A stretch of 4,645 nucleotides of DNA from a virus (lineage: Duplodnaviria > Heunggongvirae > Uroviricota > Caudoviricetes), in IMG/VR virus record IMGVR_UViG_2703718812_000024; one strand, 5' to 3'. This document shows, one piece after another, positions 2,724-4,280 of this stretch. The notes beneath the pieces were generated by a model that was not told where the DNA came from, did no database searches, and worked only from the letters and a program-made list of their open reading frames with translations. The translations under genes and the position numbers were made by a program. Positions within the stretch are counted from its first letter, which is position 1, and the number at the start of each line of letters is the position of its first letter.

Positions 2724-2975
2724 TAAATTTCCATGTGTGACATATAAAAGCCACCAGCGCAGAAAATAAAACGCCTCACGTTATGCAAAACGGGTTAACC
2801 ATCGTGATGCCTTGCCGCATTCAATTAACGGCAGGTAAAAAAATACCCGCAATGCAATAACACTACGGGCCATTAACGTAATATAAGGAGTTAACCGATG
2901 TGTATTGTATACAGTCGTGTGCATATTGTCACAGGCAACAGGCATCCGCGCCAAATACCCGCCAGAGAAAATCAG

Positions 2976-3005
2976 TTGATCGCCAGTATCAAAAATGGCT
3001 ATGAT
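2976..3005 (+). promoter_or_regulatory. Candidate sigma70 promoter of Icd-like module A: TTGATC (2976-2981), 18-nt spacer, TATGAT (3000-3005)
   Basis: The -10 is a 5/6 match to TATAAT and the -35 a 4/6 match to TTGACA. The same two hexamers with the same 18-nt spacing recur at 3451-3480, and both lie exactly 279 nt upstream of the respective Icd-like ATG. Confidence 0.45.
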
Positions 3006-3066
3006 TCCCGCGCACCTTATAAAACGGGTGTCGGGATTGGAACCCCGCTGGAGATAAAGGCGATAC

Positions 3067-3089
3067 AGACGCCGAACGCGTCTTTTTTT
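3067..3089 (+). terminator. Hairpin plus T7 run (terminator or attenuator-like) in the module A leader
   Basis: AGACGC (3067-3072) and GCGTCT (3078-3083) form a 6-bp stem around a CGAAC loop, followed by seven T (3083-3089). It lies about 62 nt after the candidate -10, so a short RNA of about 78 nt (roughly 3012-3089) is possible. Confidence 0.55.
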
Positions 3090-3155
3090 GTATCGGCGCA
3101 CACGCACACCTTATCAATGGTGGGCTGTATGGGGCTGACTTCGGTCAGGCTGGTT

Positions 3156-3165
3156 TCCTTTATCG
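3156..3165 (+). promoter_or_regulatory. Anti-Shine-Dalgarno element of module A (TCCTTTATCG), perfectly complementary to CGATAAAGGA at 3235-3244
   Basis: 10-nt perfect complement to the sequence overlapping the SD of the Icd-like gene. It is also complementary over 8 nt to an upstream SD-mimic GATAAAGG at 3053-3060. The orthologous element in module B covaries (see 3634-3643). Confidence 0.45.
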
Positions 3166-3254
3166 CCAGTAGTTCCAACTCCGTGCAGTCCACCGCCAGC
3201 GAGATTGGAACCTCCAGCGGTGGGTATATCCCAACGATAAAGGAGGCTGCCATC

Positions 3255-3443
3255 ATGGCTACTACCCCTGCCCTCGTACATTCTCAGACTGCCTTTATCT
3301 GGCGTTTTATCACCTTCGGCACGTCAGAACGTCAAATTATCCACGTAACCGCCTGGACGGAACGCGAAGCGCGTAACCGTTGCCCGTCCGGTTGTGTCGC
3401 TGTATTCGCTGCCCGTATTCGTCAGGGGGTGAGTCATGCTTAA
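3255..3443 (+). CDS. Icd-like small protein, copy A (62 aa; host cell division inhibitor Icd-like family of P1 / P4-like elements)
   Basis: ATG at 3255 preceded by a strong SD AGGAGG (3241-3246, 8-nt spacer). The protein MATTPALVHSQTAFIWRF...TEREAR...FAARIRQGVSHA shares WRF, TERE(A/T)R and ARIRQGV(S/R)HA motifs with copy B. It is in frame with a longer open frame from 2898; I consider the short form more likely, but this is unresolved. Confidence 0.6.
   Translation: MATTPALVHSQTAFIWRFITFGTSERQIIHVTAWTEREARNRCPSGCVAVFAARIRQGVSHA
3411..3430 (+). repeat. 20-bp exact direct repeat GCCCGTATTCGTCAGGGGGT (partner at 3868-3887) at the 3' ends of the two Icd-like genes
   Basis: Exact 20-mer in both copies, followed in each by GTCATGC, while the rest of the duplicated modules is much more diverged. 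Confidence 0.8.
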
Positions 3444-3450
3444 AAACATG

Positions 3451-3480
3451 TTGATCGCCTCTTCTTTCGGGCTGTATGAT
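3451..3480 (+). promoter_or_regulatory. Candidate sigma70 promoter of Icd-like module B: TTGATC (3451-3456), 18-nt spacer, TATGAT (3475-3480)
   Basis: Same hexamers and spacing as module A. The 9-mer TTGATCGCC is identical in both copies. It begins 8 nt after the stop of Icd-like copy A. Confidence 0.45.
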
Positions 3481-3535
3481 GCCGGAGTCGCCCACATGGC
3501 GACCGGGTTTAGCAGCCTGAATACTACAGCGGACA

Positions 3536-3565
3536 GCCGCTTACATTCCGATATGCGGTTTTTTT
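3536..3565 (+). terminator. Weak hairpin plus T7 run in the module B leader (degenerate counterpart of 3067-3089)
   Basis: GCCGC (3536-3540) pairs with GCGGT (3555-3559), with one G-U pair and a large loop, followed by seven T (3559-3565). The T-run sits at the same offset from the promoter as in module A (108 vs 107 nt). Confidence 0.3.
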
Positions 3566-3633
3566 GCGTCCGTAAACCTACCCATACCCGCATTATGGCG
3601 GGGCGTAACGGGGGAGCCTTTGCGCTCGCTGGT

Positions 3634-3643
3634 TCCTGTAGTG
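3634..3643 (+). promoter_or_regulatory. Anti-Shine-Dalgarno element of module B (TCCTGTAGTG), perfectly complementary to CACTACAGGA at 3711-3720
   Basis: 10-nt perfect complement overlapping the SD (AGGAG 3717-3721) of Icd-like copy B. It is also complementary to an upstream SD-mimic ACTACAG at 3523-3529. The sequence differs from module A, but complementarity is preserved in all three elements. Confidence 0.45.
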
Positions 3644-3729
3644 CCAGTCTGCTAACCCCGTTACGTCTCGCCACCATGTTTAGCAGCGTAGTAGCGAGAC
3701 TCCTTAATTTCACTACAGGAGCCTTTCAC

Positions 3730-3900
3730 ATGGCTGTATCCGCACGCCCTTACTTTGTCTGGCGCTTTATGCAGTGCCATGAAAAACAAACCTCACCCTT
3801 TACCGCCACGGCAGCAACAGAACGCGAAACCCGCGCACAACTTCCGCATACCCATCTGATTTTTGTCGCCCGTATTCGTCAGGGGGTACGTCATGCGTGA
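3730..3900 (+). CDS. Icd-like small protein, copy B (56 aa)
   Basis: ATG at 3730 preceded by AGGAG (3717-3721, 8-nt spacer). The protein MAVSARPYFVWRF...TERETR...FVARIRQGVRHA is paralogous to copy A. Its stop overlaps the start of the next gene (ATGCGTGA). Confidence 0.6.
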   Translation: MAVSARPYFVWRFMQCHEKQTSPFTATAATERETRAQLPHTHLIFVARIRQGVRHA

Positions 3901-4207
3901 TGTGTGTAACACCAGAATACTTGAACAACTGGTTACAACCATAAAAGCAGCTGACGCACGGGAAGCGAGAGCGATGTTTGATGATGCTGACTTCTACGCC
4001 CGCAAATTGCTTGAAGGGCTGGCTATCACAGGGCGCTTACTTTCTGGCATGAGTGACAGCATTGATCCTGACATGGACGAACTGCGCAGCCTGGGCGATT
4101 CCATCGCTGTTACGGCTGAACTTGTGGCCGGATTCAGTGAGGTTGTGGAGGTGTACAACTGGCGTTGCCGTAACGGAGATATCAGTACTGATTATCGCCA
4201 TTCGTGA
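3893..4207 (+). CDS. Hypothetical protein (104 aa) translationally coupled to Icd-like copy B; possibly the Ash-family partner usually found after icd-like genes in P4-like elements
   Basis: The ATG at 3893 overlaps the Icd-like stop (ATGCGTGA, stop 3898-3900). The ORF track gives an alternative in-frame start at 3863. The Ash-family label comes from recalled synteny only; I do not recognise the sequence. Confidence 0.55.
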   Translation: MRDVCNTRILEQLVTTIKAADAREARAMFDDADFYARKLLEGLAITGRLLSGMSDSIDPDMDELRSLGDSIAVTAELVAGFSEVVEVYNWRCRNGDISTDYRHS

Positions 4208-4280
4208 TAAGGCAACGACAGTCACAGCTAACCGCATTTATGCAGCAACGGCGTAACTGACCAGAACAAAGGATAAAAAA

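Follow-up and report, generated by a model that had tools for sequence, protein, structure and literature searches.

The 4,645-nucleotide (nt) stretch of viral DNA analysed here (the window; IMG/VR record IMGVR_UViG_2703718812_000024, Caudoviricetes) carries two modules of the same layout, in tandem and on its plus strand, between positions 2976 and 3900. Each module, termed A or B, comprises a promoter, a short leader, the gene of an antisense RNA of the C4 family, two target sites for this RNA and a small open reading frame (ORF) of the Icd-like family. The second target site overlaps the Shine-Dalgarno (SD) sequence of the ORF. Following the nomenclature of phage P1, we refer to the recognition segments of the antisense RNA as a' and b', to the matching sites in the leader as a1 and b1, and to those ahead of the ORF as a2 and b2. 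The elements are:

2976..3005, plus strand: promoter A, TTGATC-N18-TATGAT, analogue of PLE and P1c4; hexamers at 2976 and 3000, predicted start near 3012
3012..3088, plus strand: IsrK/seqA-like leader A; a1 at 3037-3043 in a hairpin loop, b1 GATAAAGG at 3053-3060, terminator at 3067-3083 with a T run to 3089
3113..3200, plus strand: C4-A antisense RNA; b' at 3156-3165 in the hairpin-2 loop, a' at 3172-3178 in a single-stranded junction, 3' GCCA
3205..3244, plus strand: downstream targets of C4-A; a2 at 3205-3211, b2 at 3235-3244 overlapping the SD AAGGAGG
3255..3443, plus strand: Icd-A, 62 amino acids, Icd/Kil-like (NCBIfam NF033153, 58.9 bits)
3451..3480, plus strand: promoter B, TTGATC-N18-TATGAT; hexamers at 3451 and 3475, predicted start near 3487
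3487..3565, plus strand: IsrK/a1b1-like leader B; a1 at 3509-3515, b1 ACTACAG at 3523-3529, P1-like weak hairpin plus T7 at 3536-3565
3591..3678, plus strand: C4-B antisense RNA; b' at 3634-3643 in the hairpin-2 loop, a' at 3649-3655 in the junction, 3' ACCA
3680..3720, plus strand: downstream targets of C4-B; a2 at 3680-3686, b2 at 3711-3720 overlapping the SD AGGAG
3730..3900, plus strand: Icd-B, 56 amino acids, Icd-like (NCBIfam NF033153, 47.3 bits)

The original prediction, made from the sequence alone, had described the two modules as a c4/CI-type antisense-RNA immunity architecture, and all positions and strings that it gave proved exact when rechecked. These comprise the two TTGATC-N18-TATGAT promoters at 2976 and 3451, each with an 18-nt spacer, the "SD-mimics" GATAAAGG and ACTACAG, the hairpins with a T7 run at 3067-3089 and 3536-3565, and the hexamer-to-ATG distance of 279 nt in both modules. 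The anti-SD elements are likewise perfect reverse complements of their partners (3156-3165 against 3235-3244; 3634-3643 against 3711-3720). A sigma-70 scan independently recovered both promoters, and a terminator scan recovered the hairpin and T run of terminator A; terminator B was not flagged, because its hairpin loop is 14 nt long.

Both units belong to the C4 family of antisense RNAs

The covariance scan of the leaders that had been suggested placed both antisense RNAs well above the gathering score of the Rfam C4 family (RF01695; 45 bits). Unit A scored 77.6 bits (E 1.3e-14) and unit B 73.5 bits (E 1.4e-13), each over model positions 1-87/87. Leader A matched isrK (RF01394; gathering score 50 bits) at 3012-3088 with 61.5 bits, and gave only 18 bits on c4-a1b1 (RF03163; gathering score 46.7 bits). 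The CI RNA of P4 and its seqA region match the same C4 and isrK models, at 74.9 and 60.8 bits, like the units described here, and each module is therefore an immunity unit of the P4/P1 type. The equivalence of these P4 regions with the two Rfam families has been stated previously (PMC3632133).

The minimum-free-energy folds, of -41.5 kcal/mol for C4-A (z-score -5.9) and -47.5 kcal/mol for C4-B (z-score -5.4), both reproduce the C4 family structure, in which a long closing stem encloses two hairpins. In both RNAs the anti-SD element b' is exposed in the loop of hairpin 2, as folding of the leaders had been expected to reveal if the assignment held, and a' is unpaired. Among related loci, variants of hairpin 1 and of the closing stem remain paired. 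The closing stem is followed by a conserved 3' GCCA or ACCA, an indirect sign that the RNA may be cut out of the operon leader. The anti-SD elements thus represent more than chance complementarity, lying within C4 matches with E values of 1e-14 and 1e-13 in RNAs whose folds have the z-scores given above.

Both ORFs exceed the cut-off of the NCBIfam Icd-like model (NF033153; 25 bits), as do the reference proteins P4 Kil (76.1 bits) and P1 Icd (52.6 bits), in agreement with their earlier description as Icd-like. The immunity architecture proposed for the region is supported by the C4 matches, the exposed anti-SD loops, the Icd-like matches and, as described below, by the separate specificities of the two modules and the covariation of anti-SD and SD elements.

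Each unit carries two recognition triples of its own

Besides the b elements, we identified a second triple, a1/a'/a2, which had gone unnoticed and is exactly complementary in both units. In module A, a' reads GTTCCAA (3172-3178), with complements at a1 (3037-3043) and a2 (3205-3211); in module B it reads CTGCTAA (3649-3655), with complements at 3509-3515 and 3680-3686. The "SD-mimic" corresponds to the b1 site of the P1 scheme, alongside a parallel a1/a'/a2 system that the original prediction did not mention. In both units the sites are where they would be expected, and their complementarity is exact over 7 to 10 nt. When G-U pairs are allowed, the b':b2 duplex lengthens to 14 nt (A) or 13 nt (B), covering the whole SD. 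The a2 and b2 positions of module A also agree with those annotated in P1. Rfam score, fold, complementarity of the sites and the position of b2 over the SD all place the two units among the C4/CI RNAs of P1 and P4.

The two specificities were expected not to cross-react, and the sequences point the same way: pairing between modules does not exceed 5-7 nt and includes many G-U pairs, and A and B have no a or b specificity in common. Energies of full-length duplexes between C4 and leader failed to discriminate cognate from non-cognate partners and were rejected as a measure of specificity; since they ignore intramolecular structure, we replaced them with pairing restricted to the loops. Elsewhere in the window, an 11-nt perfect complement to the C4-A b' loop (GATAAAGGAAA) occurs at 2014-2024, within an AT-rich hypothetical ORF (1486-2382); the rough chance expectation for such a match is about 0.1 per window.

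RNA and targets change together among related loci

To place the modules among their relatives, we used a sample of 106 loci from IMG/VR together with E. coli loci, in which C4 genes were located by covariance model and nhmmer. The species range sampled is E. coli and Shigella, and a profile search of genome contigs with an Icd alignment gave one locus, from Shigella. A covariance model of our own, built from five sequences, recovered all of the Rfam matches in a 20-locus cross-check.

The 52 unique modules fall into two nearly invariant scaffolds, with variation almost wholly confined to the hairpin-2 loop and the junction, and in every module the upstream and downstream sites are complementary to the module's own RNA at fixed positions. 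In an alignment of 37 distinct modules, the a1:a' and a':a2 pairs are each formed in 222/222 cells, with double-sided changes at 4/6 a-pair positions; none of 500 shuffles reached the observed value, and controls slid along the alignment paired in just 10-50% of cells. With G-U pairs allowed, cognate pairing in all 51 unique modules spans 7 nt or more at a1, a2 and b1 and 9 nt or more at b2, against a median of 5 nt for non-cognate pairing. We counted 10 a-types, 16 b-types and 24 combinations. The claim that complementarity is kept despite sequence differences between copies therefore extends to homologous loci, in which anti-SD and SD never vary independently.

The clearest case is a sister island (L001) that is 98.1% identical to the window. 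It differs at 92 positions, 77 of which fall within 3001-3900, and among these differences three triples (a-A, b-A and a-B) have each switched in full and in concert.

The hexamers of promoter A are kept in place among related modules while the spacer varies, and most related scaffold-2 modules have TTGCAA-N18-TATGCT where promoter B stands. A GATC Dam site lies within both -35 hexamers (TTGATC; 2976-2981 and 3451-3456) and is kept in most scaffold-1 modules.

We considered whether every Icd-like gene has a C4, and the presence of 39 Icd-like loci without one led us to reject a universal link. Many islands (L045-L086 and L006; for example L045 2484-3177) start the operon with a close homologue of Icd-A and have neither C4 nor isrK; they carry instead a small ORF transcribed divergently, together with a promoter and, immediately ahead of the SD, a GC-rich hairpin. 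The front end of these islands looks like a protein-based alternative.

Modules recur in arrays of differently coded units

Tandem arrangement is a recurrent feature. Among the sampled loci we found 13 distinct arrays, twelve double and one triple; the period is 477-479 nt, or 457 nt for the third unit of the three-module array in L002. Array members always differ in both a-type and b-type. Position 1 is always occupied by scaffold 1 and later positions by scaffold 2, and scaffold-2 cassettes also occur downstream of Icd-like genes that have no C4 at all. At least 114/5426 complete E. coli genomes contain the junction between an Icd gene and module B.

These comparisons bear on the origin of the pair, which had been described as duplicated and diverged. 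The tandem arrangement stands, whereas a recent duplication does not: the RNA scaffolds represent old lineages, and modules A and B are about 46-68% identical, depending on the alignment. A direct repeat likely to serve as a recombination substrate for cassette gain or loss brackets module B:

3411..3439, plus strand: direct repeat of 29 nt; second copy at 3868-3896, 27/29 identical

Such repeats, together with the third copy in one strain, could suggest that unit B arose neutrally when islands recombined unequally and has no function of its own. We regard this as decidedly unlikely. The promoter, a1, b1, C4, a2, b2, SD, ORF and open frame of B are kept in many arrays; its seven b-types and two a-types are still matched to their targets; and the B scaffold is an old lineage that lies nearer to P1 than to unit A.

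Long ORFs run through the RNA genes in the Icd frame

In both modules the frame of the Icd-like ORF is free of stops through the whole unit, whereas the other two frames contain 4 and 3 stops in A and 5 and 8 in B. The resulting long ORFs, each ending with its Icd-like ORF, are:

2898..3443, plus strand: long nested ORF A, 181 amino acids, eta-like; SD TAAGGAG at 2884-2890; spans promoter A, leader A and C4-A; shares the stop of Icd-A
3436..3900, plus strand: long nested ORF B, 154 amino acids; ATG overlaps the Icd-A stop (ATGCTTAA), with an SD-like AGGGGG upstream; spans promoter B, leader B and C4-B and continues into Icd-B

This is the nested arrangement of P4 eta and kil, with a long ORF that has its own upstream start and shares the frame and stop of the small one. 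The open frame is widely conserved, extending at least 99 codons upstream of Icd in 49/50 unique modules with a detected Icd ORF; the other frames of those 50 modules contain 1 to 32 stops each, and at least three in nearly all. A start overlapping the upstream Icd stop was found in every scaffold-2 (B-type) module examined. In several relatives (L004 5121-6476, L008 1564-3189 and L027 1459-3192), the frame ending in Icd is open for 350-510 codons upstream of the Icd start, far past the Ash region described below; this extended upstream part has no Pfam match and in L004 lies antisense to a YlcI/YnfO gene.

Residues 35-118 of long ORF A, corresponding to nt 3000-3251, match the Pfam family Phage_ASH (PF10554; E 1.1e-10), and long ORF B has no Pfam match. 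The eta ORF of P4 matches the same family over the seqA-CI region (L005 8330-8704). The Pfam Ash model thus matches a translated RNA region, which accounts for the PGAP annotation of 2898-3224 as an "ash family protein" pseudogene and of the whole of 3436-3900 (154 amino acids) as "Icd-like". Conservation of the Ash family may owe much to constraints on the RNA.

The same PGAP calls, the Phage_ASH match and the open frames would also agree with a purely protein-coding region, in which Ash-family and Icd-like proteins are made and the RNA motifs are incidental. This reading is extremely improbable given covariance-model E values of about 1e-14 and the compensatory changes in the stems. Moreover, the variable positions are the loops and their targets, which change together at three places 80-170 nt apart, a pattern that protein constraint does not predict, and P4 CI, a proven RNA, lies within the same "Ash" region. 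Coding and RNA functions overlap here and are not mutually exclusive.

The start of long ORF A coincides with a feature on the opposite strand. Within 2835-2932 on the minus strand, a strong hairpin and a T7 run lie downstream of a promoter-like GTGACA-17-TACAAT (10/12 matches). An RNA of about 60 nt is predicted, running from 2897 to 2835 (-19.2 kcal/mol, z-score -3.5). Its sequence complements the SD and the start of long ORF A, and a weak match to Rfam isrL lies over it (20.3 bits, under the gathering score of 35). It could provide a further layer of antisense control over the eta-like ORF.

The modules head the replication operon of a satellite-like island

The island has the gene order int, a hypothetical gene, alpA, the two modules, orf104, DUF4222 and RepA helicase. 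A Pfam scan identified the integrase and the AlpA/HTH_17 protein as encoded in the window. An 8.4-kb island of E. coli STEC17-183 is 98% identical to the window and contains int, the hypothetical gene, a gene for an AlpA-type helix-turn-helix protein, the two modules, orf104, DUF4222, RepA helicase, SSB, PerC and Mor. RepA helicase and SSB are present in the sister loci, whose insertion sites are mdtP or a position beside tRNA-Ile. An integrase, alpA and a replication module at a specific site constitute the layout of Gram-negative phage-inducible chromosomal islands (PICIs). No recognisable packaging genes were found in the 8.4-kb island; capsid and small-terminase genes were found in islands with related arrays (capsid-forming islands). 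The first gene past the array is:

3893..4207, plus strand: orf104, 104 amino acids, no family match; ATG overlaps the Icd-B stop (ATGCGTGA), with DUF4222 and RepA helicase next

Neither this ORF nor the AT-rich ORF at 1486-2382 (298 amino acids) has a Pfam or NCBIfam match. A fragmentary match to Rfam beta_tmRNA on the minus strand at 4194-4258 (22.5 bits, against a gathering score of 84) is almost certainly due to chance. In sister island L001, a "tRNA-OTHER" and a tRNA-Tyr gene lie at the island end (22014-22209), just within the split mdtP.

Taken together, we interpret the region as an immunity zone, located in a small PICI-like E. coli satellite, that holds two autonomous RNA units of the P4/P1 type with different specificities, a reading to which we assign a probability of roughly 0.8.

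Comparison with P4, P1, Gifsy-1 and other relatives

The likeness to P4 extends beyond the RNA families. The order of vis/alpA, immunity unit and replication genes is the same, a long ORF with a Pfam Ash domain runs through the RNA region in the frame of the small toxic ORF, the SD-ATG string of Icd-A (AGGAGGCTGCCATCATGGCTAC) is almost identical to that of kil, and the protein likewise starts with MATT. In contrast to the single unit of P4, this island has two and its relatives up to three. The island also differs in lacking sid, delta and psu and in carrying a RepA helicase in place of the P4 alpha primase, and about 85 nt more separate the terminator from CI in P4.

In the P1 immI region (P1c4 promoter, a1, b1, c4, a2, b2, icd, ant1/2) the sites have the same order and nearly the same spacing as in both modules. 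Unit B has its nearest counterpart here. Leader B is about 75% identical to the P1 leader, which is itself a seed member of c4-a1b1; leader and C4 of unit B together are 75.5% identical to P1, C4 alone 78.6%, and Icd-B and P1 Icd have 22/49 residues in common. The 13-mer containing P1 a' is identical to the module B a' of sister islands L001 and L002, and in P1, too, an overlapping stop and start couples the small ORF to the gene that follows. P1 differs in having no long nested ORF, its Icd frame being open for only 11 codons, and in having a single unit, which regulates an antirepressor and is in turn regulated by C1. We also considered a clean split into a P4-like unit A and a P1-like unit B. 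This is only partly true, as the C4 of unit A has 75% identity with P1 and 63% with P4; the resemblance of unit A to P4 lies mainly in the ribosome-binding site, the start codon and the Ash ORF.

In Gifsy-1 of Salmonella (IsrK, STnc1160, orf45, anrP), one promoter similarly gives rise to a short leader RNA that ends at a terminator and, downstream, to a processed RNA about 80 nt long; the short IsrK activates translation in trans (PMC4825925). Translation of its small ORF is coupled to the next gene, and unit A lies above the isrK gathering score. However, the small ORF of Gifsy-1 overlaps the C4-like RNA, the output is an antirepressor, and there is neither an Icd-like ORF nor a tandem.

Among Gram-negative PICIs, Rfam C4 and isrK profiles match several GN-PICIs and HE-PICIs inside eta-like genes, according to Mageeney et al. 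2023 (PMC10111431). The RNAs of the "Bro zone" described there are of the same element class and occupy the same place, between alpA and the replication zone; the text consulted contains no mention of multiple units per island, of a specificity repertoire or of stop/start chaining.

Lambdoid phages encoding Shiga toxin (Stx) carry an annotated isrK-C4 that is 83% identical to the leader and C4 of unit A (for example F039, LC710660). F039 has a single unit, and the gene downstream is not Icd but a 215-residue Rha-like regulator, whose start, MATIPAL, is near-identical to the MATTPAL of Icd-A.

These relatives inform the possible function of the Icd-like proteins. P4 Kil is lethal to cells and P1 Icd prevents their division (PMC10111431), and Icd-A and Icd-B, which belong to the same NCBIfam family and whose SD is blocked by the RNA, are by analogy possibly toxic. 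The units might then act as stabilisation cassettes resembling type I toxin-antitoxin systems, in which C4 restrains a toxic Icd/Kil peptide and control of replication is secondary. We consider this unlikely: the units always head the replication operon and are translationally coupled into it, and lambdoid phages use the same RNA unit for Rha or antirepressor genes in place of Icd.

Proposed mechanism of the tandem units

The elements described above, with their homology, covariation, open frames, overlapping starts and recurrence in arrays, can be placed in a working model based on P4, P1 and Gifsy-1. In the repressed state, the constitutive promoters (2976-3005 and 3451-3480) would each give rise to an untranslated leader. 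Partial termination at the hairpin and T run would release a short IsrK/seqA-like RNA bearing a1 and b1, and C4 would be cut out of the read-through transcript by RNase P and 3' trimming, as in P1 and P4. The junction (a') and hairpin-2 loop (b') of C4 would then pair with a2 and b2, covering the SD and blocking translation of Icd. The untranslated RNA would be subject to Rho termination, such that the downstream replication genes and the possibly toxic Icd/Kil-like peptide stay off. The a1 and b1 sites would compete for C4, either in cis or as a short RNA in trans.

On induction, an upstream promoter that probably requires AlpA or the helper phage would give rise to transcripts that include the SD and ATG at 2898. 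Translation of long ORF A through leader A and C4-A would render these transcripts insensitive to C4, as with P4 eta. The stop/start ATGCTTAA would subsequently hand the ribosomes to long ORF B, and ATGCGTGA would pass them to the replication operon. Unit B would in this model mainly add a second trans-acting specificity and silence the output of its own promoter.

An alternative use of the pair is a serial double lock (an AND gate), in which both C4 RNAs must first be neutralised, providing tighter repression or a response to two inducing signals. The units stand in series ahead of one operon, each has its own SD-blocking pair, and specificities never coincide within an array, all of which speak for such a lock. 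The conserved start of long ORF B on the upstream Icd stop suggests, however, that ribosomes arriving from unit A translate through B. In P4, transcripts become insensitive to CI when eta is translated from an upstream promoter (Forti et al. 1999, cited after PMC10111431). In some arrays, furthermore, the leading Icd-like gene lacks a C4. We give the double lock a real but lesser chance. The P4-eta-like nested ORF in each module alters the probable logic of the tandem, and a role of unit B as a second lock on induced transcripts is the less likely one.

Several points weigh against our reading of the region as two autonomous immunity units, or against parts of the working model. Leader B scores below the gathering score of both candidate families (isrK, 36.6 bits at 3487-3565; c4-a1b1, 32.4 bits at 3474-3523; E about 2e-05), and its terminator hairpin is weak. 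A simple scan found no plus-strand promoter for long ORF A between alpA and 2898, and this ORF, unlike its P4 counterpart, is uncoupled from alpA by a 175-nt gap. As the sequences compared share common descent, neither the open frames nor the paired cells can be counted as independent events. Every functional step of the model, from transcription and processing to Rho termination, coupling and induction, is carried over from P4, P1 and Gifsy-1, and that coupling overrides C4-B we infer from geometry alone.

Recognition codes shared with phages

The a'/b' code of phage F039 (L114 2516-3405), TTAGGAC / CAATCAAGG, is the unit A code of sister island L001, and prophages of O111 Shiga toxin-producing E. 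coli carry this code as well, likewise ahead of a Rha-like regulator (matches H80-H85, E. coli genomes). For the window's own unit A code, no phage carrying it was found in IMG/VR; it occurs in 7 complete E. coli genomes, in each case in islands. Since the window's code has been seen only in islands, we treat RNA cross-talk between helper and satellite as a lead and not as a result.

The sharing of a code between an Stx2 phage, O111 prophages and a 98%-identical island underlies a further, rather doubtful suggestion: that stacked units with hypervariable a'/b' loops form an RNA "recognition code" common to satellites and helper phages. If this were true, the cassettes would repress rival islands with the same target code and would sense the IsrK-like decoy RNA of a particular helper prophage. 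Induction of the helper would then unlock the satellite by RNA-RNA titration and not through a protein antirepressor.

Implications for satellite immunity

The immunity unit itself belongs to a known and well-studied family, and its occurrence in PICIs has been noted before. Three features appear to be new. The first is the recurrence of arrays of two or three modules whose members never share one specificity; a literature search found no description of tandem C4 arrays, which is not proof of absence. The second is the presence of long ORFs in the Icd frame that pass through each RNA unit and are chained by overlapping stop and start codons. The third is the exchange of entire recognition triples, in concert, between the window and a 98%-identical island.

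Accounts of Gram-negative PICIs usually centre on AlpA control, and to our knowledge their silencing is poorly understood. The present locus shows RNA immunity of the P4/P1 type to be carried by a whole class of these islands, often in stacks of two or three differently coded units. The "ash family protein" pseudogenes and over-long "Icd-like" proteins annotated in hundreds of E. coli genomes are translated IsrK/C4 RNA genes inside eta-like ORFs. The switching of codes as full triples between near-identical islands offers a concrete, readily testable system for heteroimmunity, for competition between satellites and for possible RNA cross-talk with Stx and P1-like helpers.

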